A DNA stretch of 64,000 nt from an uncultured Spirochaetota bacterium (GCA_963734545.1 CAVTHO010000009.1:244151-308150); one strand, 5' to 3'; positions 17,232-34,871 are shown, numbered from the stretch's first letter. The notes: generated by a model not told the origin, from the letters alone. Translations and numbers: made by a program.

Positions 17232-17239
17232 AAGTAATG

Positions 17240-17368: not shown

Positions 17369-17505
17369 GGCGCATCTCGTAAACGTTCCCGATTGTCCGA
17401 TTGATGTCCACGGTCATCGCCATCACGACCGAAGCCGTTTTCCTTTTCGCCGCGCCGTCCGCCTCGGGCCTGCTCCTGGACGCGTTTGGAATGAGGGACT
17501 GAAAA

Positions 17506-18672
17506 GTGTCGGGCAGCGTCTCACTCGTGCGGTGCAGTGACTATGATTTCCCGAGAGTCAAGGCATCGGTGAGGCAGGGTCTCGAGCTGCTCGGCGGAAT
17601 TTCCGCCTTCGTCAAGCCCGGCGAGCGGGTGCTGCTCAAGGTGAACCTGCTCATCAGGAGAAAGCCCGAGAAAGCGACGACCACTCACCCTGCCGTTGCA
17701 CGGGCGCTCGCCGAGCTGGTCAGGGAGGCCGGCGGCAAACCCGTCATCGGCGACAGTCCAGGGGGGCGCCATTTCTACACTGCCAGCACCCTTCGATCGG
17801 TCTACGAGACCTGCGGCATGACCGAGGCGGCGCGGGAGAGCGGCGCGGAGCTGAACTGGGATACCGAGGTGGTCGAGGTTCCCTATCCCGAGGGCAGGCG
17901 CGTCAAGCTGGTCAAAACGATCAGGCCCGTGCGCGAGGTGGATAAGATCATCAGCGTGTCCAAGCTCAAGACCCATGGGATGACCGTCTACAGCGGCGCC
18001 GTGAAAAACCTCTTCGGCATAGTCCCCGGCCGGTACAAGGGCGAGTATCACCTGAGATTCGAGGACGTGGACGATTTTGCCGACCTCCTGGTCGATCTCT
18101 GCCTGTTCGCAAAGCCCGTGCTCTCCGTCATGGACGCGGTGGTCGGCATGGAAGGCTACGGGCCGACGAGCGGAAGGCCGCGCGCGGTAGGGCTGATCAT
18201 TTCCAGCCCGGATCCCTATGCCCTCGACGTGGTGGCGGCTGAAATCATCGGCCTGAAGGGCCGGCAGGTCCCGACTATCAGGAAGTCCGCCGAGCGGGGC
18301 TTGTGTCCCTTGCACGCAGAGCAGCTGACCGTGGTGGGAGAGCGGGTCCCGGATGTTGCGGTCCCGACTTTCAGCAAACCGACGGTCAGGATAGCCCTGA
18401 ACTACTACGGACTGCTGCTCCCCGCGGGCTTGAAACGATGGATGGACAATCTGGTCAAGCCGAAACCGCGACTGAATGCGGACGCCTGCAGCGGATGCGG
18501 CGAGTGCGAAGAAGCATGTCCCCCGAAGGCCATTACGATGATGGATCAAAGACCTTCGGTGAATCTTGACGCGTGCATCCGCTGTTTCTGCTGCAACGAG
18601 CTGTGCCCTCGCGGGGCGTTCGCCATCGCCCGGCCGTGGTTCCTGCGGCTGCTCCTGCGCGGCAGCGAATGA
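17506..18672 (+). CDS. DUF362 domain protein with C-terminal 2x[4Fe-4S] ferredoxin domain
   Basis: GTG start after GAGGGA. VLLKVNLL, ISVSKLKTHGMT, VMDAVVGMEGYGP. Two cluster motifs: CSGCGECEEACP and CIRCFCCNELCP. Confidence 0.8.
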   Translation: MSGSVSLVRCSDYDFPRVKASVRQGLELLGGISAFVKPGERVLLKVNLLIRRKPEKATTTHPAVARALAELVREAGGKPVIGDSPGGRHFYTASTLRSVYETCGMTEAARESGAELNWDTEVVEVPYPEGRRVKLVKTIRPVREVDKIISVSKLKTHGMTVYSGAVKNLFGIVPGRYKGEYHLRFEDVDDFADLLVDLCLFAKPVLSVMDAVVGMEGYGPTSGRPRAVGLIISSPDPYALDVVAAEIIGLKGRQVPTIRKSAERGLCPLHAEQLTVVGERVPDVAVPTFSKPTVRIALNYYGLLLPAGLKRWMDNLVKPKPRLNADACSGCGECEEACPPKAITMMDQRPSVNLDACIRCFCCNELCPRGAFAIARPWFLRLLLRGSE

Positions 18673-18713
18673 GCCGGGCGAGAGGCTCGTGTCCTCCCCC
18701 CGCTCCTCTTCCT

Positions 18714-20294
18714 TCAGAAATCCTTCTCCACGTACTCCAGGAAATCGAAGTCCGCGTGGAGTCCCCTGCCGGACAGGTCCTGGCAGCAGAGGGCCGCGAA
18801 TGCACCGGTGAAGCCGCAGGGGACCGCGTGCTCGTCGGAAAGTATCGACGCATCCATCTCCCACCCGATCCGGGCCCAGGTGTTCCCGCCGGGAGAGTAG
18901 CGGAAGCTCAGCCTCTCGTGGTCCATGTCGAAACCGAGGAAGACCCGGTTCCAGCCTTCCACGGGAATCTCCTTCTCCACCGGGTATGAAAGAACGCCGC
19001 GCTCGCAGCGCATGAGGCCGAGGCACCTGGAAGCGTGCGCCGCCCGGCTGATGTAGAGATAGTAGAAGCTGTCGGTGCTGTAGAAAGCGGCAAGCCCGGC
19101 AAGCTGGTGGATGGACGGGGGCTGGAACTCGACGCACGTCGAAACGGAGACCTTGAACGCGCTGATGCGACGCGCGACTATCGCCTGCCGGAAGTTCGAG
19201 AGAATGCTTTCCCGGCCCTTCAGCCTCAGATAGCCCGGCCTCTCGGTCAGGCTCATCAGCGAGTCATCCAGGGGAACGCGAAGAGACTGGTAGCACGGAC
19301 GAAGGATCGGGGCCTCGAAGTCATCACGCGAGGGCTCCGTTTCCCATTCGCGCGTGGGAAGGTCCGGGCCAGCGAACTCCAGGGTGGGCGACCGCCCGCC
19401 CTGCTTCAGACGCAGCCATCCATTCTGGGTCCATTCCACAGCCTGGAGAGAGGTCTCCCGGCCCAGGACCGATCTCCCGTTCGCCAGCGGGCGGCGGCAG
19501 AGATAAGCCATGACCCACTCGCCTCCCTGGGTTTCCACGAGACTCCCGTGCCCGGCGCTCTGGAGGGGAAAAGCGGGATCGTGCGCCGAGGTGAGGAGCG
19601 GATTGCCCGGCATCACCGTGTAGGGGCCGCGGAGCCGCGCCGACCGTGCCACGCTGACGGCATGCGTGGTGAATGTGCCCCCTTCCGCGGTTACCAGGTA
19701 GTAGAAGCCGTTCCGCTTGTACAGGTGGGGGCCTTCCACGAGACCAAGCTCCGTTCCGCCGAAGATCAGCGATTCCTCTCCGACCAGCCGCCGCTGCTCG
19801 GGGCAGTACTCTTGCAGAAGGATTCCTCCGAATCCATTCTGGGCGGGTCGGTAATCCCACAGCACATTGACCAGATACTTTCTTCCGTCGGGATCGTGGA
19901 AAAGGGACGCATCGAAACCCGAGCTGTTGAGGTAGACCGGATCTGACCAGGGGCCCTCGATGGAGGCAGACGTGGTGAGATAGTTATGACAGTCCTTGAC
20001 CTGCCCCGCCCAGCGCTTCATGTCGGTGTACACGAGATGGAAAAGGCCGTCGGACCAGCTCAGGCACGGAGCCCAGACGCCGCCGGAGTTCGGATTGCCG
20101 CGCATGTCCAGGAGGTCGGGCCGGTCCAGGGGCCGGGCGGCAAGGCGCCAGTGCTCGAGATCCCGAGAGTGATGGATACAGACGCCCGGAAACCATTCGA
20201 ATGTCGAGGTGGCGATATAGTAGTCGTCCTCCACGCGCAGGAGGGAAGGGTCAGGATTGAACCCGCGCAGAATGGGATTGCGAATTACGCGCAT
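18714..20294 (-). CDS. glycoside hydrolase family 43 (beta-xylosidase/alpha-L-arabinofuranosidase type) with C-terminal beta-sandwich
   Basis: MRVIRNPILRGFNPDPSLLRVEDDYYIATSTFEWFPG (catalytic Asp region), VWAPCLSW, GFDASLFHDPDG, VEGPHLYKRNGFYYL (catalytic Glu). The start is trimmed to ATG 20294. Confidence 0.85.
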   Translation of the reverse strand: MRVIRNPILRGFNPDPSLLRVEDDYYIATSTFEWFPGVCIHHSRDLEHWRLAARPLDRPDLLDMRGNPNSGGVWAPCLSWSDGLFHLVYTDMKRWAGQVKDCHNYLTTSASIEGPWSDPVYLNSSGFDASLFHDPDGRKYLVNVLWDYRPAQNGFGGILLQEYCPEQRRLVGEESLIFGGTELGLVEGPHLYKRNGFYYLVTAEGGTFTTHAVSVARSARLRGPYTVMPGNPLLTSAHDPAFPLQSAGHGSLVETQGGEWVMAYLCRRPLANGRSVLGRETSLQAVEWTQNGWLRLKQGGRSPTLEFAGPDLPTREWETEPSRDDFEAPILRPCYQSLRVPLDDSLMSLTERPGYLRLKGRESILSNFRQAIVARRISAFKVSVSTCVEFQPPSIHQLAGLAAFYSTDSFYYLYISRAAHASRCLGLMRCERGVLSYPVEKEIPVEGWNRVFLGFDMDHERLSFRYSPGGNTWARIGWEMDASILSDEHAVPCGFTGAFAALCCQDLSGRGLHADFDFLEYVEKDF

Positions 20295-20322
20295 CTTGTT
20301 GCTCTGTGCCGGCTCTTCACGC

Positions 20323-20545
20323 TCATCCCTTGACTGCCCCTCCTGTAAGGCCTGCCACCATATACTTCTGGGCAAAGATGAAGAGCAGGATCGCGGGCAT
20401 CATGGCGGAGTCAGGTAGCCGAGGACGAGGTTCCCGCCCGTCGAATGCTCGCCCATGAAATCCATGACGCCCATTGGAAGTGTGAATCCCAGGCCGCTCG
20501 CTTTCGCCGAGACTACCGCACGTCGGAAGACCCTGAAATCGGATA
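20323..20545 (-). pseudogene. C-terminal remnant of a carbohydrate ABC transporter permease
   Basis: ...MMPAILLFIFAQKYMVAGLTGGAVKG* is a typical permease C-terminus. Upstream, in another frame, is GLGFTLPMGVMDFMGEHSTGGNLVLGYL. The ~200 N-terminal residues are absent and the MATE gene ends at 20591. Confidence 0.6.
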
Positions 20546-20590
20546 AATGCCGGATTCATGGATAGGTGGTATTGCCTACCGCCGGAAGGC

Positions 20591-21997
20591 CTATACTCCT
20601 TCCCTCTGTTCGATGGAAGAAAGCTCGACTGCCACGGCGGCATCGTCCCAGCGCTCGACGAGTATCTTGCGCTTCCAGACGCCGGACCTCCATCGGAGCG
20701 TCATGATGATGCCCCTGACCCATTCATCCAGGCACATCGCACCCCACAATCCGACGAGTCCGAGCCCGAGCCTTACTCCGGCGAGCCATGCCCCGAACGT
20801 CCCTATGAGCATCATTGAGACGATGGCCAGGACCACGGGAAAGCGTACGTCGCCCGCCCCCTTCAGCGCGGGATTGATGATCGTGTTGAAATTCCTGCCG
20901 GGCTCGTGGACCAGGGAGATGAAAAGGATCGTGGCGGCGAGACCGATGATCTCCTGGTCCTGCGTGAAAAGGCCGACGATCGGCGACTCGAACAACTTCA
21001 CTCCTATGACGAATACGAGTGAGATGAGGAATCCCGCGCCGAAGTATCGATACACTCGTTTCTCGGCCTCGGCCTGCCTGCCTGCCCCCACGTAGTAGCC
21101 GACCTTGATCTGGGCAGCCGAGCCTATCGAAATACCGGGCATGAACACAAAGCGCAGCACGGCGATGAGTATTCCATACGTCGCGAGCGCCTGCGTGCCC
21201 ATCCCGGCGATCATGGACAGGATGAGGATCTGTGAAAGATTGTACGTGAGGTACTCGCCCGCAGTGGGCACGCCCACGGCGACGACCGCTCTGTAGACGG
21301 AGCGCGGAACCTGCCGGATCTCGCCGAACGGAAGCGCGACCTCCTTCTTCCGCCGAATGATCAGGGCGTACAACGCGCACGCCACGGCCTGGCTGGCCAC
21401 CGTGGATGCCGCGACGCCGACCACGCCGAGCACGGGGAACCCGAACGGGCCGAAGAGGCAGAGGGCGTTGCCGCTCACGGTCAGGACGAGAGCGACGATG
21501 TTGACGATCATCGGGTCCCGCGGATGCCCCCATGCGCGCAGGATGCTGGCCTGCGTAATGTTGAAGGCCATGAAGAATGACAATCCGCCGTAGATGATGA
21601 GGAACTGGCGGGCGTACAGGGCCACCAGGGGGTCGAGGCGGTAGAAACGAAGGACAGGCCCCGCGATTGCGGCGACAATCCCGGAAAGGACGAGGGAAAA
21701 CGCAACGACCAGGCTGAGGCTGCCGATTCCCACCAGACCCGCCTCGCGACGCCTTCCGGCACCGAGGTTCTGGGTGATGAGGATGCTCGCACCGATGGCC
21801 ACCATCGTGTAGAGAAGCTGAATGAAGAAAGCGAACTGGTTGACCAGGCTCATCGCGGCAACGGCATCCCGGGAGAACCTGCTGAGCATGAAGGTGTCCA
21901 CGCTCATCAGGGAGGTGCGCAGGGTGTTTTCCACCAGGATCGGCCATGCGAGCGTCAGGAGAGGAATGCGGGTTCTGTCGGTGAGCGCGGCTTGCAT
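20591..21997 (-). CDS. MATE family efflux transporter
   Basis: 468 aa and ~12 predicted hydrophobic helices. LAWPILVENTLRTSLMSVDTFMLSRFS, QNLGAG, GVPTAGEYL and ALKGAGDVRFP are typical MATE patterns. Intact. Confidence 0.85.
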   Translation of the reverse strand: MQAALTDRTRIPLLTLAWPILVENTLRTSLMSVDTFMLSRFSRDAVAAMSLVNQFAFFIQLLYTMVAIGASILITQNLGAGRRREAGLVGIGSLSLVVAFSLVLSGIVAAIAGPVLRFYRLDPLVALYARQFLIIYGGLSFFMAFNITQASILRAWGHPRDPMIVNIVALVLTVSGNALCLFGPFGFPVLGVVGVAASTVASQAVACALYALIIRRKKEVALPFGEIRQVPRSVYRAVVAVGVPTAGEYLTYNLSQILILSMIAGMGTQALATYGILIAVLRFVFMPGISIGSAAQIKVGYYVGAGRQAEAEKRVYRYFGAGFLISLVFVIGVKLFESPIVGLFTQDQEIIGLAATILFISLVHEPGRNFNTIINPALKGAGDVRFPVVLAIVSMMLIGTFGAWLAGVRLGLGLVGLWGAMCLDEWVRGIIMTLRWRSGVWKRKILVERWDDAAVAVELSSIEQREGV

Positions 21998-22105
21998 GTG
22001 GGGCCTGCAGCTTACCTGCTTCGAAACGGAGCCACAAGCGCCAGGAGCCCTTCGGCCAGGAGGAACGGCGCGAGGCAGTTGACCGCGAAGCGGAGTAGCA
22101 GGAAC

Positions 22106-22900
22106 TCAGTCCATGTAGTAGCCGCCGTTGATGTTGACGGTTTCCCCATTGATGAACGCGGCGTCGTCGGAGGCGAGAAAGCAGATGAGATGCGAGATGT
22201 CCTCCACCGTCCCGAGCCTGCGCACCGGAATGGACGCCGCCGCCTTCGCCTTCTTCTCATCGGTCCAGTATTTCATCATTTCCGTCATGACCGCATGCGG
22301 GAGCAATGGCATTGCAGGTGACGCCGAACTGCCCCAGCCGCCGGCCGACGGACCGGGTCAGGCTGATGACCGCCCCCTTGCTCGCTCCGTACACGAAGAC
22401 CGTGGAGTTGTCACCGTTCTTGCCGGTGATGGAAGAGACATTGACGATGCGCCCGTACTTCTGGTCCTTCATGATGGGGGTGGCGGCGCGGATGGCGTAC
22501 AAAATGCCCTTCACATTGATGTTCAGGGTCCTGTCGATGATGTCGTCCGTCGTTTCCTCGATGGTGCCGGGAAGCAGCAGTCCCGCGTTGTTCACGAGGA
22601 TGTCCAGCCGCCCGAGCTCGTCTTTTGTGCGCGTGATCAGCATGTCGACCTGCGCGCGGTCCTGGATGTCGCACGCGATCACCATGACCTTGCCCGCGCC
22701 GCCGACCCGGATTGCGCCGCCGGACCGGCGGATTTTGCGTCGCTGCGGATCAGGGCGGCGGTTTCCTCCAGGCCGGCCGCGTCGATGTCGGTGATCACCA
22801 CGGCCGCGCCATCCCGGGCCATTTCCCGTGCGGTCGCCTGTCCCATCCCTTTTGCCGCGCCTGTGATGATCGCGGCCCTTCCCTCGAATCGTGCACCCAT
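22106..22900 (-). CDS. short-chain dehydrogenase/reductase (FabG-like); frame changes near 22715 and 22305
   Basis: MGARFEGRAAIITGAAKGMG (TGxxxGxG), LVNNAG, SSITG...VYGASKGAV (YxxxK), and the C-terminus VEDISHLICFLASDDAAFINGETVNINGGYYMD. Split across ORFs 22679..22900, 22257..23264 (C-terminal part) and 22106..22312. Confidence 0.8.
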
Positions 22901-22942
22901 GAAATCCCTCTCCCTTCAGTTCGCTCAGTACGCCTGGTCTGC

Positions 22943-23740
22943 CTAGTACGCGCCGGTGCTCTTCTGGCCGCTCACAAGGAGGACGCCCGAGCTTGTTCCC
23001 AGACGCGTCGCCCCGGCCCCGATCATGGCAACGGCATCCTCGAAGCTGCGCACGCCTCCGGCTGCTTTGACGCCCATGGTCGGGCCGACAATGCGGCGCA
23101 TGAGCGCAATGTCCGCGACCGTGGCCCCGCCCTTGTTGAATCCCGTGGAGGTCTTCACGAAATCCACGCCCACCTCTTTGGCGATCTGGCAGGCAAGGAC
23201 CTTTTCCTCGTCGGTGAGCATGCAGGTTTCCAGTATCACCTTGAGGAGAATGCCCATTCGGCACGCCCGGCGCACTGCAAGCATGTCCTCCCGCACCGTC
23301 TTCAGATCCCTGGCCTTCATGGCGCCCACGTTCATCACCATGTCGATCTCACCGGCGCCGTTGGCGACGGCCGTCCGCGCTTCGAAGCTCTTCACACGGC
23401 TGTCCATGGCGCCGAGTGGAAAGCCGACAACAGCGCACACTTTCACTCCGGTTCCCCCCAGGCGCCGCGCGCAGTGCTCCACCCACCGGGAGTTCACGCA
23501 TACCGAATAGAAATGATGCTCCGCTGCCTCGGCGCACAGCGTGGTGACCTGCTCTTCCGTGGCCTCGGGCTTCAGCAGCGTATGGTCGATATACCGCGCA
23601 AGATCCGAGGGCCGGAGATCGGAAGTGCGGGGAGCCTGAGCCGCCATGTGCGTCTCCTCTGCCGGGGACTTTGCTCCCTGCATGCCCAGGCGCGCCACGA
23701 CCTCCGCCACGATTTTCTCGATCAACTGGTTCTGGTCCAC
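22943..23740 (-). CDS. deoC: deoxyribose-phosphate aldolase (DeoC/DERA family) with ~45-aa N-terminal extension resembling a BMC encapsulation peptide
   Basis: The core begins [42 protein letters not shown] (Schiff-base Lys region), VKAAGGVR. The GTG start at 23740 lies 9 nt after the BMC-H stop. The extension is [31 protein letters not shown]... Confidence 0.9.
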
Positions 23741-23749
23741 TATTCTGCC

Positions 23750-24055
23750 CTATTTGGCGGACGATTGCCGCCCCAGGGGCAGGGCCGCGTCCACTGACTC
23801 GTGCGGCCGCGGGATCACGTGGGTCGTCACGATCTCCCCCACCTTCTCCGCCGCGCGCGCCCCCGCGTCCACCGCTGCCCGGCAGGCCGCTACGTCACCG
23901 CGCACGATGGCTGTCACGTACCCGCCCCCGATCTTCTCGTATCCCACCAGGTCGACCTTCGCAGACTTCACCATCGCGTCCGCCGCTTCCACCATCGCCG
24001 CGAATCCGCGCGTCTCGATCATGCCCAGCGCTTCAAAACTCACGTTGTCCGCCAT
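23750..24055 (-). CDS. bacterial microcompartment shell protein, BMC-H (PduA/EutM/CcmK family, Pfam00936-type)
   Basis: [85 protein letters not shown]... is collinear with PduA along its whole length. RBS AAGGAAGGG lies upstream. Confidence 0.95.
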
Positions 24056-24131
24056 ATATCCCTTCCTTGCTCTCTCAACGGCTCTCGCCGTCTGCTTCGC
24101 AGCCGCCCTCCCGGCGCGCAGCGCGCGCGAT

Positions 24132-25175
24132 TCATTTCCCGGGCTTCACGACGGCCTTGAACACCGATTGATGCTTGAGGTCTTCGAATGCCTGGTCGAT
24201 CTGCTCGAGAGGGTACTGGCGCGTGATGTAGGGCCGGGGATCGAGATCTCCCGAGGCGATCCAGCCCATTGTCTTTCGATTCTGCGCCGGCGTCGACGCG
24301 TGCACCCCGTGCACGGAGAGCTCCTTGTAATGGATGAGGTTGCTGTCCAGAAATCCCGTGGTCTCTTTTGCCAGCCCGCCGAACAGGCTGATCCTCCCGC
24401 GCTTAGCCGCAAGGGCAACAGCGTCGGACTGCGCCTGGCCCACGGGGCAGGCGGTGATCAGAACATCCACGCCCCTCCCATCCGTCAGCCGCTTGATTTC
24501 CGCGTGGAGATCGACTCTGCCCGATGCTATGGGAACGGCGAAAGGCACCAGGCGCATGGCCTCGCGCAGTCGGCTCTCATTCGGCTCGATAATGACGATC
24601 GGCTCCGCGCCCTGCATCCGGGCGAGCTCCGCGTGCATGCACCCGATGAAGCCCGATCCGAAGATCGCGACAGATTCCCCCTTCTGGATCCGCAGAAACT
24701 CCTGACCGTTGGCGACACAGGCAATCGGCTCGGCGAGCGCCGCCACCTCGTCGGGAACCCCGGCGGGAGTCGCATACACGTTTCCCCGGTCAAAGGCAAT
24801 CGCCGGGACCTCCATGTATTCGGCGAATCCCCCGTCGAACTGGAATCCGATGGTCTGGAGGCTCTCACACAGGTTCGTGTAGCCGCGGCGGCACGCGTAG
24901 CAGGTGCCGCACCCGATGGCCGGCGCCATCGAGATCCTTTCACCGAGCGAAAATCCCTTCCGGTCAGGACCGATCTCGACGATCTCTCCGCACAGCTCAT
25001 GTCCCGTCACGCGCGGGGGGGAGATCCTCTCATTGCCGAACTGCCAGGTCCGGAGGTCCGTTCCGCAGACGGAACAGGCAAGGACGCGGATCACCGCGCT
25101 GTCCGCCCGCGCGTGAGGCTGTGGATAGTCGCCCATCCGCATCGCCCCGGCCTTCTCGTACACGTATGCTCTCAT
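24132..25175 (-). CDS. zinc-dependent medium-chain dehydrogenase/reductase (sorbitol/threonine dehydrogenase-like)
   Basis: MRAYVYEK start at 25175. [20 protein letters not shown], the structural-Zn cluster [15 protein letters not shown], and GSGFIG (Rossmann). Confidence 0.85.
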
Positions 25176-25188
25176 CCTGCGGCCTCTT

Positions 25189-26372
25189 TCAATCTCCCAT
25201 GAGGGCATCAAGGCGCTGCCCGTCACGGGGAACCCACTGTCTCCAATACCTCACCGATTCCTCCAGAGCCGGCAGAATGTCCCTCTTCGTGTCGGTGGTG
25301 CGCACGAAAATTTCGAACGTCAGGTAGATCTCCTCACAACGCGGCGGAAGTCCCGGCAGAGGCTCCCCCTCATAGGACCGCGCAATTGCCTGGAGCACTT
25401 TCGCGGGATGCACGATACCCCCCAGGTTGTTCTCCGGTGTGAACGGGAGATGCGGTGACGACAGTCCGTCCGTCTGCTGCAGATGGACGATCGGGGAGTA
25501 GCATCCGATCCTCTCGAGCCAGCCATAGAGATCGCAGTCGGCCGGAGAGGCGAACAGGTGGGGGTACCGATTCATCTCCGTTTCGATGCGCGCAACGGCT
25601 TCCGTTCCTGCTCCCCCGCCGCGGCGCCTGTCATCCCTGAAGATCTTGAAAGCGGACTCGGGACCGAGCCAGGGCTCGGGTAATCCTCCCCACAGCGCTT
25701 TCCGAATCGTCGCCGCGTCAGGCCGGAGGAACAGCCGCTGTCCGGTCTGGTGCCCGGTGTCCATGGCCACGTACGCACGGGCCCGCCCCGCCGCGTCACC
25801 TCCCGCATGTAGCGCTCCGTGCCGGCAATCGTCCACGGCGGCTGGTGCGGCGTGTACATCTGTTCGAGGACGATCGGAATCGGTCCCTGCTCGTGCGCGA
25901 ACCGGGCCACCTCGGCGAGCTCGTCGTAGAGGATCTCCTCCGCGGCGGCATAGGCGGCGGGATCCTGCAGGGCGCTCTCCGAAATGGCATGGATGAAGAA
26001 GCCGGCGCCCGCTTTGACCGTCGAAGCGATCCTGATCATCACCTTCAGCCAGTCATTGACGATCCGCGCGCGCACACGGGGATCCGGGTGGGCGAGACCG
26101 AGTGTGCGGTACGTGGTGTACCCGGTATAGAAGTTCGCCACCCGCAGGCCCTCCGCCTCCACGGCTTTGCGCACGTCCGTGATCCATTCCGAGAGGTATT
26201 CGAAGCCGCAATAGAAGGGGTCCGCCTCGGTGTCCGCGCTCGCCTCCACGAAGGACACACCCAGCTCGCGGATGATCTTCGCCCACTCGGAGGGTCGGGT
26301 CCATCGTTTCGTCGCGAAGGAGTTGTCCATCGCCAGGTAGATCCGGGGATACTTCGTCACGCTCTGCTCCAT
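25189..26372 (-). CDS. xylose-isomerase-like TIM-barrel sugar (phosphate) isomerase/epimerase; one frame change near 25800
   Basis: MEQSVTKYPRIYLAMDNSFATKRWTRPSEW...GVSFVEASADTE...FFIHAISE... is in ORF 25572..26372. The reading continues as AAGRARAYVAMDTGHQTG...HLQQTDG... in ORF 25189..25836. The specific substrate is unknown. Confidence 0.65.
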
Positions 26373-26384
26373 TTCTTTCCCGGG

Positions 26385-27881
26385 CTATCGGCCCACGACG
26401 TCCAGATATTTTCCGAAAGCCTCGTCCCACGGCGCCTTTGCGTGCGGCTCATAGAAGACGACTTCGGATGACCGCAGGGAAATCTCCCGCCCCTGCGCCA
26501 GCGTCGTGATCTCGCCGTCGTGCTTCAGCTGCATGAGCAGGTTTCCCATCGAAGTGGTCTCCGGGGGCCCCGCCATCACCGGGATGCCGGTGGCATCGGC
26601 CGTCCACTGGCACAACATGCGGTTCTGGATCCCTCCTCCCACGAGGTGGAGCAGGTTCAGCCTTTTCCCGGTGAGCCGCTCCAGGGTTTCCATGTTCTGG
26701 CGGTATTTCAGCACCAGGCTCTCGTACACCGAACGGGCCACGGCCCCTCTCGATCCCGCGAGCCTCTGGCCCTTCTTTTCGCAATAGCCGATGATGACCC
26801 CCGGCATGTCCGCCTGGGGGAGCGCGAACGCCGGATCGTCCACGTCGATGAAGGCTGTCGCGGATCCCGCCTTCTCCGATTCCCCGACGATCTGGTCCCA
26901 GGCGATCTCGGCGCCGTCCGCGGTCCAGCTCTGGCGGCACTGCTGGATGATCCACAGGCCGGTAATGTAGTTCACGAGCATGTTGCGGCCGTCCGCGATC
27001 GCGTTGTTTCCGTAGCCGGACTCGAACGCCGCGTCCGTCACGATGGGCCGGGGCGTCTCGATGCCGGCGATCGACCAGGTCCCCATGGAGATGAACGCCC
27101 AATGCAGGGAGGGATCGGCCACCGGGATACCCGTGACCGCGGAGGCGGTGTCATGCGTCGCGGGCGCGACGACGGGAACCGGTGAAACCGCCAGCTCCTC
27201 GCACACCTGGGGCTGCAGGGGCCCGACGAGGTCCCCGGGCATGACGATTTCTCCCAGCATCGAATCGGAAATGCCCAGACGTGCCAGGATGCGTTTCTCC
27301 CAGGTCCGCGCGTCCTGGTTGCAGAGCAGCGACATTGTTGCGTTGGTGTACTCGTTGACCGCCCGGCCCGTGAGCAGGTAGTTGAGCAGGTCCGGGATCA
27401 TCAGCAGCCGATGGCCGCTGGCGAGCTCGGTAGCGTGGTCGCAGCGGAATGAGTAGAGCTGGTAGAGCCCCATGATGCCCATGGTGGAACCGGCACAGAG
27501 CTGGAACAGCTCGCGGCGGGGGAGCTCCTTGTACAGCAGGGGGATGCGCTCGTGACGCAGCGCTTCCCGGTAGGTCACCGGGTTGGCCAGGAGCCTGCCA
27601 TTACGGTCGATGAAGCCGAAGTCGCAGCCCCACGTGTCGATGCCGAGGGAGATCACATCCGGGTATTTCCGCAGGGAGACCTGGAGGCCGATCTTGAGCT
27701 CCGAAAAGAGACGGAGGATGTCCCAGTAGAGCGTGCCGGCCGCGATGACGGCCCGATTGTCGAAGCGGTAGGTGACATCCATGGTGACGCGCGCGCCGTC
27801 GAAACCGGCGACAATGGCCCGTCCATTGCTCGCTCCGAAGTCGAAAATCAGGTAGTGCTTCACCGCCACGGCCGCCTCCAA
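26385..27881 (-). CDS. FGGY-family carbohydrate kinase, rhamnulokinase-like
   Basis: HYLIFDFGASNGRAIV, GIDTWGCDFGFID, ATHDTASAV, ISMGTWS, HLVGGGIQNRMLCQWTADATG. The TTG at 27881 is the ORF-track start; the GTG at 27869 sits 5 nt after GGAGG and may be the true start. Confidence 0.85.
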   Translation of the reverse strand: MEAAVAVKHYLIFDFGASNGRAIVAGFDGARVTMDVTYRFDNRAVIAAGTLYWDILRLFSELKIGLQVSLRKYPDVISLGIDTWGCDFGFIDRNGRLLANPVTYREALRHERIPLLYKELPRRELFQLCAGSTMGIMGLYQLYSFRCDHATELASGHRLLMIPDLLNYLLTGRAVNEYTNATMSLLCNQDARTWEKRILARLGISDSMLGEIVMPGDLVGPLQPQVCEELAVSPVPVVAPATHDTASAVTGIPVADPSLHWAFISMGTWSIAGIETPRPIVTDAAFESGYGNNAIADGRNMLVNYITGLWIIQQCRQSWTADGAEIAWDQIVGESEKAGSATAFIDVDDPAFALPQADMPGVIIGYCEKKGQRLAGSRGAVARSVYESLVLKYRQNMETLERLTGKRLNLLHLVGGGIQNRMLCQWTADATGIPVMAGPPETTSMGNLLMQLKHDGEITTLAQGREISLRSSEVVFYEPHAKAPWDEAFGKYLDVVGR

Positions 27882-27924
27882 TCAGATATTCTCATTTGCT
27901 CGGTGACTGAATAATTGCTCACTC

Positions 27925-27953
27925 ACCATAATATACACCTCCCGTGCTGTCAA
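27925..27953 (-). promoter_or_regulatory. candidate sigma70-type promoter TTGACA-N17-TATGGT
   Basis: Minus strand: TTGACA (plus 27948-27953). The -10 region is AT-rich (TATATTATGGT). It lies between the SDR remnant and the kinase gene. Confidence 0.4.
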
Positions 27954-27973
27954 GAACGGCAGCCGCCTGCTGC

Positions 27974-28249
27974 CTAGAAAGGGGCGCTCGACCGCCGGCG
28001 GATGTATATCTCGTCTATCGCCGCCGTCGGGGAGAGAGAGAGGAGGAAGAGCACGGCATCCGCGATGTCCTCCGGTCTCATGAGCGCGGAGCGATCGATA
28101 TCCGGGCGCAGGGCCTCCATCAAGCGCGTATCCACTCCCCCCGGGAGCACGGCGGACACGCGGATCCCGTGCGGCTGCGCTTCGGCGGTGCCGATCCCCC
28201 TGCCCGCCCCTGTCACGAGCGCAACCTGTCCGGAAAGATCCGTCTTCAC
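27974..28249 (-). pseudogene. short-chain dehydrogenase remnant with large in-frame internal deletion
   Basis: The 91-aa ORF joins the SDR N-terminus (LSGQVALVTGAGRGIG) directly to the SDR C-terminal region (HGIRVSAVLPGGVDT...PEDIADAVLFLLS). The ~140 residues carrying the NNAG and YxxxK motifs are missing. Confidence 0.7.
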
Positions 28250-29238
28250 GGGGTCTTCCCGCGGAGCAGCTCCCGCGCGGTGCTTTCGTCCGTGATCAGC
28301 ACGTTGATGTACTTCTTCAGCAGGGCCGCGCGAATGGCGTGCACCTTCGACGGTCCTCCGGCCACGCCGATGATCAGCTTTTTCGGATCTCCCATGACGT
28401 CCATGGGGATGCCGATCACCCGGTCGTGGACCTCATCGTCGATGAAGTCACCGTTGGCGTCGAAATAGCGGCACAGGATATCCCCCACCGCGCCCTTGCC
28501 GATCAGGCGTTGAAGGTCCCCCGGGCTGAGATATCCCATTTTGAAGAGGCTCGCCGACTTGGACGCCTCTCCAATTGAGATGAGCAGCACGTCGGCGCGG
28601 CAGGCAATGTCCAGGACCTCTTTGATCCAGGGCTCGGACTTGAAGACCTCGGCCCGCTCCTTGGTCTGCGCGATGGCCGGCGCCCATATATTATAGAAGG
28701 AGGCATCGAGCTTTCGCGCGATCTTCTCCGCCATGATGTACGGGTTCATCGTCACGTTGATCATGAGGTTCCCGATGAGGCTGACAATCTCGATCTTGCC
28801 GGTGACGAGCTGGGGCTCGAAAAAATCCGCCAGGGACGCGGTCGTGTTCCCCCAGCCGATGCCGAGAACGCATTTCTTCAGCGCGCCGATCTTGCGCTCG
28901 AGGTACGCGGCCCCCGCCATGGCAGCGCCCCGCAGCCGGCGGGAGGGGTCTTCAGAGGCCAGGGGGGCCACCACGGCGTCCTTCAATCCGAACTTCTGCC
29001 GGATTTCAGACTCAATGCTCATCAGGTTCTCGTAGGGATGTTTCAACGTGAACTGGATGATATCGAGGTCACGGGCCTTCTCGAGGAGCCGCTGTACTTT
29101 CTGGCGTGAGAGGGAGACCCGCTCCGCAATCTCCTGCTGGGTCATCTTTTCCTTGTAGTACAGCCACGCGATCCGCGTGATAATGTCTTCCTCGGATTCC
29201 TTGCGCGTGGCCTCCTCTTTTCCCCGGCGGTTTTTCAT
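28246..29238 (-). CDS. SorC/DeoR(B. subtilis)-type sugar-binding transcriptional regulator
   Basis: N-terminal HTH IAWLYYKEKMTQQEIAERVSLSRQKVQRLLEKA. The C-terminal putative sugar-binding domain carries GIGWGNT and VGDILCRYFD. Its stop overlaps the remnant start. Confidence 0.85.
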   Translation of the reverse strand: MKNRRGKEEATRKESEEDIITRIAWLYYKEKMTQQEIAERVSLSRQKVQRLLEKARDLDIIQFTLKHPYENLMSIESEIRQKFGLKDAVVAPLASEDPSRRLRGAAMAGAAYLERKIGALKKCVLGIGWGNTTASLADFFEPQLVTGKIEIVSLIGNLMINVTMNPYIMAEKIARKLDASFYNIWAPAIAQTKERAEVFKSEPWIKEVLDIACRADVLLISIGEASKSASLFKMGYLSPGDLQRLIGKGAVGDILCRYFDANGDFIDDEVHDRVIGIPMDVMGDPKKLIIGVAGGPSKVHAIRAALLKKYINVLITDESTARELLRGKTP

Positions 29239-29684
29239 GTGGTGTGCTGAAGCGCGGACTTCACTATACCTTTCTTCAATATGATGTTCGCGTATATCGC
29301 GCTCTCGCTCGTGGCGAGAATGGCGTACGCCTTCTGCGCCCTTTCGTAGAACGCGAACCGCTCGACCAGCTCGAAATCTGTGAACGCCGGGTCGTGGCGG
29401 CGGATGATCTCGCGGTACTCGTCCCAGATCGCGGTCTTCGCGGTATCTCCGGGCACGACCGCCATGAGCGCCACGGGATGCGGCACATAGGCGTCGAGCG
29501 GGAAGAATCGCATGATCGCGTCCAGCAGGGGCGGCACTCCGTGACCGTCGGCACGCAGGAGGCGGCGGGCCATGCTCGAGGCGGGAAAATTGCCGTCCGC
29601 GATGACGAGCTCGTCGCCGTGTCCCATTGAGAGGAGGACGCTCATGAGATCCGGGGAGATGATTGTCGGAATACCTTTCAACAT
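29235..29684 (-). CDS. fucU: RbsD/FucU family mutarotase (L-fucose mutarotase-like)
   Basis: MLKGIPTIISPDLMSVLLSMGHGDELVIADGNFP... and a 149-aa length are typical of FucU/RbsD. It overlaps the SorC gene start by 4 nt. Confidence 0.8.
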   Translation of the reverse strand: MLKGIPTIISPDLMSVLLSMGHGDELVIADGNFPASSMARRLLRADGHGVPPLLDAIMRFFPLDAYVPHPVALMAVVPGDTAKTAIWDEYREIIRRHDPAFTDFELVERFAFYERAQKAYAILATSESAIYANIILKKGIVKSALQHTT

Positions 29685-29734
29685 GATGTGCTCCTTTGAA
29701 ATCTGGCGGCCCTCGCGGGCCGCGCCCTCAATGC

Positions 29735-30050
29735 TACTTGGTCAGATGCACGAACTCGATGCCGGCCGCCTCGCAGAACACCTTCAGCTCCTTGATCCAG
29801 TTCCCATAGGTGCCGTGGATATGGTTGCAGCTCATGGCCTGGATGAATGTCTCCATGTCGCAGTCATTCGGGCGAATGCATGCGGCCAGTTGTCCTGCTC
29901 GATGGCCGCCAGCTTCTCGTCCTCTTCCGCGCCGAATGAGACGAACTCACCATGCACCGCCACCATCTTGTAGTGGGTCGTGCCGCCGCTGCGCGTCAGG
30001 CGCGCCAGCGTGACCTCTCCGGGCCTGGCGATATGATAGACCGAAGGGCC
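29735..30050 (-). pseudogene. C-terminal remnant of an L-fucose/L-arabinose isomerase-family gene
   Basis: ...PGEVTLARLTRSGGTTHYKMVAVHGEFVSFGAEEDEKLAAIEQDNWPHAFAR and then, after a frame change, MDCDMETFIQAMSCNHIHGTYGNWIKELKVFCEAAGIEFVHLTK*. Only ~95 of the expected ~450-600 residues are present. Confidence 0.55.
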
Positions 30051-30177
30051 GCCTGCTGGAAAGGAGAAGCCCTTCCTCTTCCTTTCTGGTCCCCCGGGTC
30101 AACGACCCGGTCTATAGGCAGGAGACACCCCCGCACCAATCCGCCGTTCATCTGCTCACATATTGAATATTTGCTCG

Positions 30178-30206
30178 ACTCTACCAGCCCGACCGCCCGT
30201 TGTCAA
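30178..30206 (-). promoter_or_regulatory. sigma70-type promoter TTGACA-N17-TAGAGT reading into the isomerase remnant/fucU/sorC genes
   Basis: Minus strand: TTGACA (plus 30201-30206), 17-nt spacer, TAGAGT (plus 30178-30183). Confidence 0.5.
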
Positions 30207-30358
30207 GAAGAATCGCATCGCTGTATCCAGCGGGGTACGGCGAGACGCTGCGGCCCATTGACAGGAGGCGGAAAATAGTCTTGTGATATGATCTCTTGCA
30301 TAAACATGCACGCGATGTGGATCGGGGGCGCACTGCCAGGTGCGAAAAGGAGAGCCAT

Positions 30359-32323
30359 ATGCTGGAACTGAGAAAAGGCGCTGACATCCTGGCCGAAGGA
30401 GGAGGCGTCAGGACTCTCGTGGACGCCGAGGCGGTCTTTGCGCGCGCGCTGGATTCGGCCGGCCGCGAGAAGCTCCAGGCAATCCACACCCCGGACGCCC
30501 TTCTGCGCATCGCGAATGCCATTGCCCTGTGCGCCCCCGCGAAGGTCTTCGTGATAAGCGGCTCACGCGAGGACGCGGCTGAATGCCGCCGCATGAGCCT
30601 GGACGGCGGCGAGGAGTGCCCCCTCGCCATGGAAGGACCACACCCTCCACTTCGACCTCCCCGAGGACCAGGGGAGAATGGTGGACCAGACCTACTACAT
30701 CGCCAACGAGGACGAGGAGGTCAGCGTCCTGGCGAAGAAGATGCTCGCGCGCCGAGGCGCTCGCCTACATCCGCGAGCACCATGGGCGGCATCATGAAGG
30801 GCAGGACCATGCTCATCGGGTTCTACAACCGCGGGCCCATCGGCGCCCAGGCGGCCATCCCCGGGCTCATGATCTCCAGCTCCGCCTACGTCCTGCACAG
30901 CGCGAACATCCTCTATCGAAACGTGTTCGACGCAGTTCGACGCGGAGGCGGCGCGCGCGGGGGTGTTCTTCACGAACGTGCACAGCCAGGGAACCAACAG
31001 GTCGGAGGACATTCCCCGGGCGCGCATCTTCATGGACAGGAGCTGGTTCACGACCTTCAGCATGTACTGCACCTACGCCGGCAACACCCTGATGCTCAAG
31101 AAGGGAAACCACCGGTTCGCGGTGGACCTCTGCACCTACTACCGGCGGGAGAAAGAGCTTTCCGAGCACATGTTCATCACGGGGCTGACGGGCCCGAACG
31201 GGAGGAAGACCTTCTTCGCCGGCGCGGCGCCCTCCGGCTGCGGCAAGACCACCACCGCCATGGTCGGCACGGACTACATCGGCGACGACCTTGCGCAGAT
31301 GTGGATCGCGGCGGACGGCACGCTGCGCGCGGTGAATCCCGAGTGCGGCATCTTCGGGATCGTCGAGGACCTCAACAAGGAGGGCGACCCGTACCTCTAC
31401 AAGTGCCTGCGGGAGCCGGGCACGGAGGTGATCTGGTCCAACGTGCTGGTGGACGAGCAGAACGTTCCGCACTGGACGGGCAGCGGCGAGACTCCTCCGG
31501 CGAAAGGGCGAAACTTCCAGGGCGACTGGTGGCCGGGAAAGACGGACAAGAACGGGCAAGCCGGTGCCCATCTCCAACGCCAACGCCCGCATCACGCTCT
31601 CCAACGAGGCAATCGGCAACTACAACCGCGTGATCGCCTCGGATCCCGCCGGGGTGCCCATCAGCGTCATCACCTACAGCGGCCGGGACAGCGACACGAT
31701 GCCTCCGGTGTGGGTGGCGAAGAATCCCGACCACGGCGTGGTCATCGGCGCGTCGATCCTCTCCGCGGCAACGGCAACGGAGGTCGGCGCCAAGGGGGTC
31801 AACCGGCAGCCGTGGGCCAATTCCCCGTTCATCCCCTGCCCTCTCGGGGACTACATGGAGGCGCAGTTCCTCTTCTTCAACTCGAAGAAGTTCTCCGTCG
31901 AAGGGACGACCCCTCATCGCGGGGCTCAACTATTTCCTGCTCGACTGCGCGCGCGGCGGTGACCTGAACAAGCTCCTGGGCGAAAAGCGCGACGTGAGGG
32001 CGTGGCTGTCGTGGCTGGACAGGTACGCGCACGGAGAGGTGAAGGGAATCGAGACACCCATCGGCTTCATACCGCGCTACGAGGATCTGGAAACAGCTCT
32101 TCCGGGAGCAGATCGGCGAAGGAGTACCCGAAGACGCTCTACGAGAAGCAATTCTCCTTCTACGTCGACAACATCCTCGCCCGCATCCAGCTCCAGGAGG
32201 ATGCCTACCGCAAGGAAAAGAAGATGCCCGCGCAGGATCTTCGAGGTCTACGAGGAGCAGAAGAAGGGACTATTGGCGCTGAAGGAGAAGTTCGGCCCCG
32301 TCGTGAAGCCGGACCAGCTGTAG
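30359..32323 (+). CDS. pckG: phosphoenolpyruvate carboxykinase (GTP); about nine +1 frame changes
   Basis: ATG 30359 follows AAAAGGAGAG. VFVISGSREDAAE, HTLHFDLPEDQGR, MLIGFYNRGPIG, P-loop FFAGAAPSGCGKTTTAM, YIGDDLAQMW, NPECGIFGI, VITYSGRDSDTMPPV, PLIAGLNYFL, RAWLSWLDRYAHGE. The pieces lie in ORFs 30296, 30583, 30963, 31564, 31994 and 32002, and in two unlisted frames. Confidence 0.9.
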
Positions 32324-32481
32324 CCATGGACGGCGAAGTCGGCCGAGGCCAGGGACTCCCGGCGCGCCTTCCGCTCCTGGCGGAGTTGCGCGCCTGCCGC
32401 CCTACGGATGGCCGAAAGGCCGACTGCCAGCGTACCGGCTGCGATTGCCGGAATCGCCGGTTTCGGATTTAATAGCAACCA

Positions 32482-33430
32482 GTGGAGCAGATCTCGAACG
32501 AGATCCGCGTCACCTACTCCGACAAAGAGATCGGCGGGCTGCTCAACGGCATCGGCAACGAGCAGCGCCCCTTCAGCCGCCACTTCAGCCAGAGCGAGGA
32601 CTTCTTCCTGCTCCTGGAGGGCGAGTACACGGTCCCCCACCTGCCGATCCATCACGACGTGCGCCTGCACCAGCCGAGCGCCGAATACCTGGCGGCCCTG
32701 AAGCAGGTGATGGAGCAGGTGGCGCGGCTTGCGCCGCAGGTTCTGAAGGATCTCTCCTACTTCTTCGACCCCGCCGAGATCCTCCGCCCCTGCTTCTACC
32801 GCGTCTACCATGTCGAAGAGCAGCTGGTACCTCTACCTTCTTCGCATCGACCTCATGATGAGAGCCGCGGAAAGCACCGTGATCGAGCGGGGCACCAACG
32901 ACCTGACCCCGCTCTACAAGTCCCGCAGGCTCTTCCTGGAGACGACGGTCCTTCCGCTGTCGGAGGTGGCGCGCCAGGACGGCGCCGCGAAATCGTTTCA
33001 CATCAGGCAGACCATCTCCCAGACATGGATCGGGGAGCAGGGGCGGGGCTACTTTCGAGCAGGGCATCTGGATGGACGCCGACCTCACGAAGTTCTTCAG
33101 CAAGCTCTTCCTGCCCGCCGGCAAGAAGACCTACCCGTACTATCCGTACCTGTGCAAGTACAAGACGGTCTGCCAGTCGCCTGATCGCCCTCGCTCCCGA
33201 GGGCCGCGCCTGCCGCGATTCCCGGCCTGCACCGCTCGCTGAAGTTTCTGCTTCCCGCAATGGACCGCATCCAGGCGGAGATGAAGAACGCGAGCTTTTC
33301 CGAGGATATGCCGTTCTTCCAGGAGCTGAAGGGCAAGATCCCTCCCGCATGGTACGACCTGTGGAAGGACATCCGCGTGGAAGCCTACCTGAACGACTCG
33401 GAGATGAGAGAGTTCCGCATTGAAGGCTGA
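32482..33430 (+). CDS. hypothetical protein, no recognised family; about four +1 frame changes
   Basis: MEQISNEIRVTYSDKEIGGLLNGIGNEQRPFSRHF... (ORF 32482), then WYLYLLRIDLMMRAAESTVIERGTNDL... (ORF 32810), then EQGIWMDADLTKFFSKLFLPAGKKTYPYYPYLCKYKTV, then ...LKFLLPAMDRIQAEMKNASFSEDMPFFQELKGKIPPAWYDLWKDIRVEAYLNDSEMREFRIEG*, ending at TGA 33428-33430. Confidence 0.45.
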
Positions 33431-34871
33431 TCTATCCGCCATCTCCGGCATGCAGGTGACTGTCATGGGGCTGGGCATCCACGGCGGCGGGCTGGCCTCC
33501 GCGCTCTTCTTCGCCCGGCGCGGCGCCCGGGTGACCGTGACCGACCTGCGCTCCGCGGGAGGTCCTCCGGGAGCCGATCGAGCAGCTTCGCGAGTTTCCC
33601 ATCCGCTATGTCCTGGAAAGGCACGACGAGGCGGATTTCACAGGGGCCGACCTGGTGATAAAGAACCCCGCCGTCCCCCCTCATCCCCCTACCTCCAGGT
33701 GGCGCTGGAGCAGGCGTGGCCGTCGAGACGGACCTCTCCGTGTTTCTGTCCCTTGTCGAAAAATCCCGTTCTCGCCGTGACCGGCTCAAAGGGCAAGTCC
33801 ACGACCGCGTCGGCCATCGCCTTCGGCCTGGCGCGCCGTGTTCCCCGAGGCACGGCTCGGCGGCAACATCACCGTTTCACCTCTCACCTTCCTGGACGAG
33901 CTGGCCCCCGGCGCCCCTGTGGTGCTGGAGCTTTCATCCTGGCAGCTCGGGGACCTGAAAGGCCGCGGGCTTCTCACCCCGGCCGTTTCCGCCTTCACCG
34001 TCATCCTGCCCGACCACCTGGACAAGTACGCCGGGCATGGATGAATACGTGGCGGACAAAAAGGCGATATTCCAGGAGCAGGGACCGGCGCAGAACGCGA
34101 TATTCAATCTCGACGACCCCTGGCAGCAGGACTTCCCCGCGCGAGACCCGGGCGCGCCCCTTCTTCTACTCTGCGCGCCCGCTGACCGGAGGGAGGTGCG
34201 GCGCGTGGCTCGAAGAGGCCGGCGGCCGAAGCCGGCTGGCACCCGGCGGCGCGGAGGAAGCCATCCTCGGTGACAGCCGCCTCCCCGGGGCTCACAACAG
34301 GATGAATCTCCTGTGCGCCGGGCTGGCGCTGCGCCTTTTCGGCGTTACGGCCGGCGCCGTGCGCGCGGCGCTTGCGGAGTTCCCCGGAGTGGAGCACCGG
34401 CTGGAAATGTTCAGGGAGTGGGAAGGGATCCGGTTCTACAATGATTCCGCCGCGACCATCCCCCACGCCACCGTTCAGGCGCTGAAGGCGCTCCCGGACC
34501 CGATCGTCCTCATCACCGGCGGCACGGACAAGAACATCGACTTCAGCCCGCTCGCGGAAACGGCGCGGCTTCCCCGGGCCATCGTGCTGCTGGCGGGAAC
34601 GGGGACAGAGAAAATCCGCGGCGTGCTCGACGCGCAACAGGTGAGTTATGAAGGCCCGTTCGGGAGCCTGCGTGAAGCGCTCGATGTGGGCATCATGCGC
34701 GCGCGCGGCGCGATGACGGACCGGGGCGTCTCGATACTCTTCTCCCCCGGGTGCACGTCCTTCGGGATGTTCCTGAACGAGTTCGACAGGGGAAGGAAGT
34801 TCAAGGAAACAGTGACGGCCCGGATTTCTACAGGGCCTTCTCCAGAAACAGGGCCCCCGCAATCGGATTGA
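33420..34871 (+). CDS. murD: UDP-N-acetylmuramoyl-L-alanine--D-glutamate ligase; about nine frame changes
   Basis: VTVMGLGIHGGGLASALFFARRGARVTVTD, P-loop LAVTGSKGKSTT, VLELSSWQL, ILPDHLD, LPGAHNRMN, FPGVEHRLE, FYNDSAAT, ITGGTDK, LFSPGCTSFGMF. The pieces lie in ORFs 33420, 33716, 33838 and 34037. Confidence 0.85.
   Translation: MKADLSAISGMQVTVMGLGIHGGGLASALFFARRGARVTVTDLRSAGGPPGADRAASRVSHPLCPGKARRGGFHRGRPGDKEPRRPPSSPYLQVALEQAWPSRRTSPCFCPLSKNPVLAVTGSKGKSTTASAIAFGLARRVPRGTARRQHHRFTSHLPGRAGPRRPCGAGAFILAARGPERPRASHPGRFRLHRHPARPPGQVRRAWMNTWRTKRRYSRSRDRRRTRYSISTTPGSRTSPRETRARPFFYSARPLTGGRCGAWLEEAGGRSRLAPGGAEEAILGDSRLPGAHNRMNLLCAGLALRLFGVTAGAVRAALAEFPGVEHRLEMFREWEGIRFYNDSAATIPHATVQALKALPDPIVLITGGTDKNIDFSPLAETARLPRAIVLLAGTGTEKIRGVLDAQQVSYEGPFGSLREALDVGIMRARGAMTDRGVSILFSPGCTSFGMFLNEFDRGRKFKETVTARISTGPSPETGPPQSD

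Follow-up and report, generated by a model that had tools for sequence, protein, structure and literature searches.

A probable in-place remnant of a microcompartment locus for sugar phosphate utilisation in a Rectinemataceae-group spirochaete

The signature enzyme of bacterial microcompartment (BMC) loci of the sugar phosphate utilisation (SPU) type is a deoxyribose-phosphate aldolase (DERA, or DeoC). All SPU-associated DERAs carry an N-terminal extension, which DERAs outside BMC loci lack (Dwyer et al. 2024, PMC11585597), and RpiB forms a complex with the SPU DERA (PMC11585597). Curated SPU loci always contain an aldehyde dehydrogenase (AldDH) and at least three genes for the pentameric shell protein BMC-P, and most subtypes contain RpiB; loci lacking AldDH or BMC-P have been dropped as fragments of incomplete genomes. 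Here we describe a gene cluster in a 64-kb stretch (hereafter the window; 64,000 nucleotides, G+C about 64%) from an uncultured Spirochaetota bacterium (GCA_963734545.1, CAVTHO010000009.1:244151-308150), in which such an aldolase lies beside a single gene for the hexameric shell protein BMC-H and a row of sugar-catabolic genes. The host is a peat or soil spirochaete of the Rectinemataceae group. With a probability that we put at roughly 70%, the cluster is the in-place remnant of a sugar operon fused to a complete SPU-type locus, the interior of which has been deleted. The finding is ordinary in kind, a partly deleted SPU microcompartment locus.

The locus shares with SPU loci (PMC4207490, PMC8217296, PMC11585597) the signature DERA with an N-terminal amphipathic-helix extension, and its positional orthologue in a strain of 94-97% identity is a full SPU locus. 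Unlike curated SPU loci, it has no AldDH, no BMC-P triplet or quadruplet, no BMC-T and no RpiB, and this incompleteness is, judged from the alignments, biological and not the effect of a contig end. Like satellite loci, it combines one shell-protein class with an enzyme; PF00936 is the only shell class in the window, and catalogue definitions (PMC4207490) would call the locus a satellite. That name is misleading. Satellites described so far were either added at a distance from the main locus of their genome or split off from it, whereas the locus in the window stands in the main position, arose by internal deletion, and belongs to a genome without a known main locus. The ETU locus of Clostridium kluyveri (PMC4207490) also has hexamer gene(s) and no BMC-P, but it contains two AldDH and three alcohol dehydrogenase genes and polyhedral bodies have been seen in the species, whereas our locus has no aldehyde dehydrogenase. 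Erosion of the pdu and eut operons has been documented in host-restricted Salmonella serovars (PMC4454671 and work cited there). There, as here, a metabolosome operon is eroded in one lineage and intact in close relatives; however, the Salmonella cases involve mainly point pseudogenes and a known ecological shift, whereas the window lineage, among free-living peat and soil spirochaetes, shows kilobase deletions and has retained its signature enzyme under selection.

Genes in the window were called with Pfam profiles and NCBIfam models. All genes of the locus lie on the minus strand and read from 30206 to 22106, as follows.

30178-30206, minus strand: promoter-like site (TTGACA, 17 nt, TAGAGT)
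29742-30073, minus strand: C-terminal remnant of a fucose-isomerase family (FucI-like) protein, about 110 residues (Fucose_iso_C, E 1e-23)
29235-29684, minus strand: FucU/RbsD family L-fucose mutarotase, intact (Pfam RbsD_FucU; 144.5 bits against the NCBIfam L-fucose mutarotase cut-off of 141)
28246-29238, minus strand: SorC/DeoR-LsrR type sugar-binding transcriptional regulator, intact (Pfam Sugar-bind, E 2e-66; NCBIfam DeoR/LsrR-like match under its cut-off)
27974-28249, minus strand: short-chain dehydrogenase (SDR) remnant of 91 codons (Pfam adh_short fragment)
27925-27953, minus strand: second promoter-like site, upstream of the kinase (TTGACA, 17 nt, TATGGT)
26385-27881, minus strand: FGGY sugar kinase, intact (Pfam FGGY_N and FGGY_C; nearest to rhamnulokinase, yet under that NCBIfam cut-off at 350 against 528 bits)
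25189-26372, minus strand: xylose-isomerase-like TIM-barrel gene in two frames (AP_endonuc_2 at 25572-26372, then another frame to 25189)
24132-25178, minus strand: zinc-type medium-chain dehydrogenase (MDR), threonine/sorbitol dehydrogenase-like, intact (ADH_N and ADH_zinc_N in the reading frame 24132-25226; every NCBIfam match under its cut-off)
23750-24055, minus strand: BMC-H of 101 aa, intact, the sole shell gene (PF00936, E 2e-31)
22943-23740, minus strand: DERA (PF01791), GTG start, 9 nt downstream of BMC-H
22106-22906, minus strand: second SDR, downstream of DERA, in three frames (from alignment with contigs L169, L001 and L167)

An initial annotation, made from the sequence of the window alone, had placed the named genes on this strand and at these positions, proposed the two promoters and an extension on DeoC, and reported no BMC-P, BMC-T, acylating AldDH or second BMC-H in the 64 kb. 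Our analyses agree with it on each of these points. The profiles recover the genes; the two promoter-like sites, at 30206-30178 and 27953-27925, each match 10 of 12 consensus positions (seven such sites were observed in the region, against 1.5 expected from shuffles); and the catalytic domain of the aldolase begins at residue 46, the first 45 residues being extra. When the four BMC-P, the BMC-T, the AldDH and the RpiB of a relative were used as tblastn queries (E 1e-5), no match was found in the 64 kb. We also built profile hidden Markov models (HMMs) from the relatives (350 BMC-P, 65 BMC-T, 78 AldDH, 111 RpiB and 127 BMC-H sequences) and searched all six-frame open reading frames (ORFs) of the window of at least 25 residues; one BMC-H was significant (E 3e-53) and everything else had E above 0.1. 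Specifically, where an SPU locus has at least three PF03319 genes, the best BMC-P hit in the window has E 1.9; where it has BMC-H and at least one BMC-T, the window has one BMC-H and no BMC-T; neither tblastn nor the profile found an acylating AldDH (PF00171), and neither search found an RpiB-type isomerase (PF02502), which in SPU loci stands next to DERA. The DERA (PF01791) with its N-terminal extension, by which SPU loci are recognised (PMC11585597), is present. Thus, of the hexamers, pentamers, signature enzyme and AldDH of a functional metabolosome, only a hexamer and the signature enzyme remain in the window. PduL and Pta lie outside this locus type in the relatives. In addition, an Rfam scan of window positions 18000-34000 matched no RNA family.

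The standard locus around this aldolase is of the SPU type as defined by Axen 2014, Sutter 2021 and Dwyer 2024. On long contigs of relatives with 70-80% identity (contigs and loci of relatives are designated by L numbers) the order is uniform: BMC-H, BMC-T, BMC-H, BMC-P, BMC-P, AldDH, BMC-P, BMC-P, RpiB, DERA, with a CsoS1D-like BMC-T. These loci have four BMC-P genes, AldDH is present in L171, L004-L008 and others, and RpiB is immediately upstream of the DERA in 102 of the 111 loci that have a DERA with the N-terminal encapsulation-peptide extension and at least 500 nt of upstream sequence. The relatives thus agree with the literature (PMC11585597) that DeoC-type loci normally carry a full shell and core set, as the initial annotation had stated. 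The closest relative is L171, an 11-kb JGI metagenome contig (3300056594) found through the SorC cluster, which shares 94-97% DNA identity with window 23772-30073 (97.3% with 24124-28188 and 94% with 28189-30073). Its order is FucI, FucU, SorC, SDR, FGGY, TIM barrel, MDR, BMC-T, BMC-H, BMC-P, BMC-P and AldDH, the last cut by the contig end. FucI (482 aa), SDR (241 aa) and the TIM barrel (394 aa) are intact in L171, the first two also in L172 and L020; L171 is without the first BMC-H that L172 and L020 carry. The contigs L172-L174 belong to a sister species, 84-85% identical to the window. Upstream, on the opposite strand, they carry MurD, DUF8295 and PEPCK; beyond PEPCK lie genes for a XylF-like sugar-binding protein, an ABC ATPase and a permease, followed by the same operon, which runs through MDR, BMC-H and BMC-T. 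In this sugar-operon part of the intact locus, the XylF-like protein falls just under model cut-offs and the FucI homologue is distant.

Other relatives complete the picture. In L170, whose DERA is 88% identical to that of the window, two BMC-P genes, RpiB and DERA are followed by a partial SDR-like ORF that aligns with the downstream SDR region of the window, and this SDR is always 3' of the aldolase in the close relatives that reach past DERA. L009 and L095 have the FGGY-TIM-MDR module joined to the RpiB-DERA end of a BMC locus. Full spirochaete SPU loci have BMC-H proteins 88-90% identical to that of the window, and the more distant L181 has shell genes 88% identical and a DERA gene 66% identical at the DNA level. 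Taken together, these alignments show the ancestral order as ABC transporter, FucI-like isomerase, FucU, SorC, SDR, FGGY, TIM barrel and MDR in the left part, and BMC-H, BMC-T, BMC-H, two BMC-P, AldDH, two BMC-P, RpiB, DERA and SDR in the right part.

Comparison of the window with L171 and L172 shows four clean deletions relative to this order.

30073/30076, minus strand: deletion a; L172 4062-9117 (5,056 bp, by blastn) is absent, and the junction has 2-3 nt of microhomology
28188/28189, minus strand: deletion b; L171 4016-4465 is absent, 450 bp in frame inside the SDR
24124-24128, minus strand: deletion c; L171 8532-9245 (714 bp) is absent, containing the CsoS1D-like BMC-T and its flanks, with GCGCG microhomology at both ends
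23741-23749, minus strand: deletion d; a 9-nt spacer runs from the BMC-H stop TAG to the DERA start GTG

Deletion a removed the sugar-binding protein, the ABC ATPase, the permease and the first 1.1 kb of FucI, and joined the transporter promoter and ribosome-binding region to the tail of FucI. By blastn, window 30076-30233 is homologous to L172 3904-4061, directly upstream of the sugar-binding protein gene; the putative promoter at 30178-30206 is the kept promoter region of the lost ABC-transporter/FucI operon. At the site of deletion d, where the relatives hold two BMC-P, AldDH, two BMC-P and RpiB, the window reads TAG GGCAGAAT(A/T) GTG; the exact right-hand breakpoint is placed by L170, L171 and L005 only. 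This junction recurs, with one substitution only, in L169 (JGI 3300056874) and L180 (JGI 3300051019), which were assembled from short reads of other samples and are 92-93% identical to the window over their BMC-H-DERA-SDR stretch. Because the junction is reproduced in these two assemblies, deletion d is real and common to diverged lineages, and the deletions in general are considered real because the breakpoints are sharp, with short microhomology, and because junction d recurs.

Differently rearranged loci were observed in other members of the clade. In L167 and L168 (DERA 89% identical) the order is a BMC-P C-terminus, 85 nt, DERA, SDR, FucU and GH43; in L167 1-2305, FucU follows the downstream SDR, and the 47 nt before it match the beginning of the FucI remnant in the window, an arrangement best read as an independent deletion and rearrangement. 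L001, which is syntenic with window 11625-25189 at about 85% DNA identity, has no shell gene; its order is MDR, a truncated FGGY kinase, DERA, SDR, MatE and GH43. Its N-terminally truncated kinase of 290 aa (L001 1464-2336) replaces all shell and core genes between MDR and DERA; it is unrelated to the window kinase, and its best match, at 34% identity, is in L096. The locus is thus structurally unstable across the clade.

In the window lineage, the four deletions took away the transporter and most of the isomerase and, likewise, the middle of the first SDR, the BMC-T and the interval from the last BMC-H to DERA. A closed metabolosome would no longer be encoded at the locus, because there is no pentamer, trimer, AldDH or RpiB partner. 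The kinase, TIM-barrel and MDR module would be orphaned, intact or nearly so, with neither transporter nor isomerase. The DERA most likely acts as an ordinary soluble deoxyribose-5-phosphate aldolase with a vestigial targeting helix, and the BMC-H may represent a leftover not yet lost, perhaps still produced when transcription of the upstream genes reads through.

The aldolase is a deoC equivalog in NCBIfam (287 bits against a cut-off of 117). Solved DERA chains in the PDB align to it from residue 46 only and cover the catalytic domain in full; the extension consists of a helix at residues 2-19 and a variable linker to residue 45, and by its sequence the helix is an amphipathic one of the encapsulation-peptide (EP) type. 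The relatives of this DERA number in the thousands. The nearest 120, all labelled Spirochaetia or Rectinemataceae, share 72-96% identity with it along the whole protein, including the extension, and the best match is 79% identical among species-representative genome contigs and 80% among metagenome contigs. All relatives compared have the EP extension. In four spirochaete metagenome-assembled genomes (MAGs), L027, L029, L030 and L031, an EP-DERA 69-71% identical to that of the window was found with no shell gene in the fetched flanks (up to 10 kb either side); these may have been orphaned when the BMC was lost, or they may encode distal cargo. In the MAG SPRUCE 656 (L020 and L083), two EP-DERA paralogues are present, one within the sugar operon (SDR-DERA-FGGY; 78% identical to that of the window) and a divergent one (59%) at the end of a BMC locus, after RpiB.

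Rates of substitution were estimated by the Nei-Gojobori method. Between the window and L169, which both have junction d, DERA shows 30 synonymous and 9 non-synonymous differences (dS 0.17, dN/dS 0.09). Together with the identical EP helix and the full alignment of the catalytic domain, this value indicates that DERA has been under purifying selection since deletion d. Some of the findings on the retained genes weigh against a locus in simple decay. The EP helix is identical in the variants with the window-type deletion and in L167, and one residue differs in L001. Against L171, none of the remaining genes shows relaxed constraint, with dN/dS of 0.10-0.15 (FucU 0.12, FGGY 0.10, and SorC, TIM barrel, MDR and BMC-H also in this range), a comparison that mixes the time before and after the deletions and so cannot date them. 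The last 147 nt of BMC-H are identical in the window (23750-23896) and L169 (1-147), while the DERA alongside differs at about 5% of sites; a BMC-H drifting neutrally should have changed. Deletions a, b and c are seen in the window assembly only. Finally, a second BMC locus elsewhere in the genome may use this BMC-H and DERA, the search having covered the 64 kb of the window. As to the 147 nt, the differences between the window and L169 start right at junction d, and the chance of no difference over that length is about 5e-4 at the DERA rate. Over a greater distance BMC-H does not evolve unusually slowly: between L171 and L172 it is 86% identical, like the other genes. The BMC-H of the window differs from that of L171 in one core residue and in the C-terminal tail. 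The identity may mean that BMC-H is constrained or that a recombination tract ends at the junction.

The reliability of the assembly was judged from its single-base differences. Over 6 kb, the only indels in the window relative to L171 are four single-base deletions. The TIM barrel contains one, near 25779, which splits the gene and is the sole indel in 4 kb aligned with L171; another is in the FucI remnant, near 29868, and the intergenic region between FucI and FucU has the other two. The downstream SDR is split by two single-base indels and is intact in L169, L001 and L167. PEPCK (window 30284-32327, plus strand) has about nine single-base insertions in its 2-kb coding region compared with the intact 651-aa gene of L172; many of them adjoin GATC- or TCGA-like sites, and each segment keeps 64-79% amino-acid identity. 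These insertions suggest systematic long-read base-calling errors at methylated motifs, which explain the frameshifts better than decay because PEPCK is a gene of central metabolism, has nine indels and keeps its identity in every segment. The single-base frameshifts in the TIM barrel, downstream SDR, PEPCK and other genes are therefore probably long-read sequencing errors. Since PEPCK, the ammonium transporter Amt and a sigma-54 activator also carry many single-base indels, we rejected frameshifts as evidence of pseudogenisation; the kilobase and 450-bp deletions are counted as biology and the single-base shifts as unreliable.

The initial annotation had raised decay, a satellite and an unusual pathway as explanations, and proposed a comparison of synteny in relatives. 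That comparison found the full operon at the same chromosomal position in L171 and L172-L174, and decay is favoured because a 94-97% identical contig and a sister species are intact at this position. Of the support it had drawn from adjacent remnants, the FucI and SDR remnants hold as true deletions, while the frameshifted genes are probable sequencing artefacts. It had also named the case in which clusters of relatives never include shell genes, so that the BMC-H would be a stray insertion; the orthologous clusters carry the full shell set. As for a working satellite, whose BMC-H and EP-DERA would still be delivered to a complete BMC locus elsewhere, we consider it doubtful: it would agree with the conservation of BMC-H, EP helix and DERA after the deletion, with the formal definition of a satellite-type locus as PF00936 without PF03319 (PMC4207490, PMC8217296), with the two SPU-like loci found in tandem in some related genomes (L053 and L057), and with the EP-DERA genes that have no shell gene within 10 kb in other spirochaetes. 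However, the locus sits where the 94-97% identical strain and the sister species have their main locus and arose by loss, not by fission or relocation, which speaks against a satellite as its origin. In addition, same-species searches for BMC-P and AldDH, which were not exhaustive, gave no near-identical protein on a long NCBI+ENA contig; the closest BMC-P clusters were on short JGI or ENA contigs, which is suggestive, and the AldDH fragment of L171 had a best identity of 91% in a match list of mostly partial proteins. A selected two-gene unit, in which BMC-H sheets or tubes dock DERA through the EP helix with no closed shell, seems to us improbable. We know of no natural BMC-H-only scaffold with a docked enzyme. 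Nonetheless, three assemblies that diverge by about 7% in DNA have both genes intact with 9 nt between them, with the low dN/dS of DERA, the unchanged helix and the unchanged 147 nt of BMC-H; BMC-H proteins form sheets and nanotubes by self-assembly and have served as engineered scaffolds (PMC5534457, PMC10100840), and polyhedral bodies are seen in C. kluyveri, whose ETU locus lacks BMC-P (PMC4207490). Against this, the operon was lost piecemeal here and in sister lineages, L001 having lost every shell gene while keeping the same EP-DERA; DERA-made acetaldehyde gains nothing obvious from a scaffold in the absence of AldDH; and BMC-H was compared over 147 nt only, where the identity may reflect a recombination tract.

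The remaining alternatives fit the data less well than an in-place remnant. The genes stand on one strand behind two promoter-like sites and MDR is intact and conserved, as a pathway for a deoxy-sugar would have it, with mutarotase, isomerase, kinase and class I aldolase, and MDR in place of AldDH. Such a pathway is very unlikely. The FGGY-TIM-MDR module adjoins a full shell set with AldDH in the intact relatives L171, L172 and L020, in which MDR is kept beside the shell genes; MDR is thus no replacement for the acylating dehydrogenase, contrary to what the initial annotation had considered. Moreover, the isomerase and transporter of such a pathway are deleted in the window, and the aldolase is a deoC equivalog and not a fuculose- or rhamnulose-phosphate aldolase. 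We give hardly any credence to the last explanation, in which a poor long-read assembly collapsed the sequence and so dropped the missing genes. The assembly is indeed error-prone, as the PEPCK insertions and the indels in the sigma-54 activator, Amt and SDR show, but its errors are single-base indels, not clean kilobase deletions with microhomology, and two independent JGI assemblies show an identical BMC-H/DERA junction except for one substitution.

If the cluster is a remnant, single-BMC-H loci in MAGs can be true remnants, neither contig-end fragments nor satellites, and catalogues discard or merge such loci. The spirochaete loci would form a natural erosion series, from intact, through one BMC-H fewer, BMC-P joined to DERA and BMC-H joined to DERA, to no shell gene, in which the aldolase with its targeting helix is always the last to go; such a series could show which parts are dispensable and whether the EP has any role outside a shell. 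Were the docking of DERA on BMC-H to prove true, the locus would encode a natural scaffold that descends from a microcompartment but has no shell. The intact spirochaete SPU compartment is, as far as gene order tells, fused to a FucI/FucU/rhamnulokinase-like sugar operon with its own transporter, and because of this fusion to a transporter-bearing operon we infer that this SPU subtype may process an imported sugar and not only DNA-derived deoxyribose.

Several minor features were observed. In L090 and L091, DERA is upstream of the shell genes, and L091 also has four consecutive BMC-P genes that are not interrupted by AldDH. In L050, a run of N at about 9880-10000, just upstream of DERA, masks the N-terminal extension. 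Compared with L001, the sigma-54 activator (window 13970-15574) has out-of-frame stretches and an apparent in-frame stop at 14807-14809, Amt has two nearby single-base insertions (16700-16730) and a small ORF has one indel (12400-12500), none of them in a long homopolymer. The downstream SDR contains a low-complexity, repeat-containing insertion within its coding region (window 22690-22760, L169 1160-1240), which in L169 is 72 nt long and in frame. The window copy has 41 nt, being 30 nt shorter and missing one further nucleotide, and neither L001 nor L167 has the insertion. Between its FucI and FucU genes, L171 carries an insertion of 125 nt (2383-2507) that is absent from the window at this place; pieces of it match the intergenic window regions 7030-7081 and 8256-8336 at 80-90% identity, and it looks like a small dispersed repeat element.

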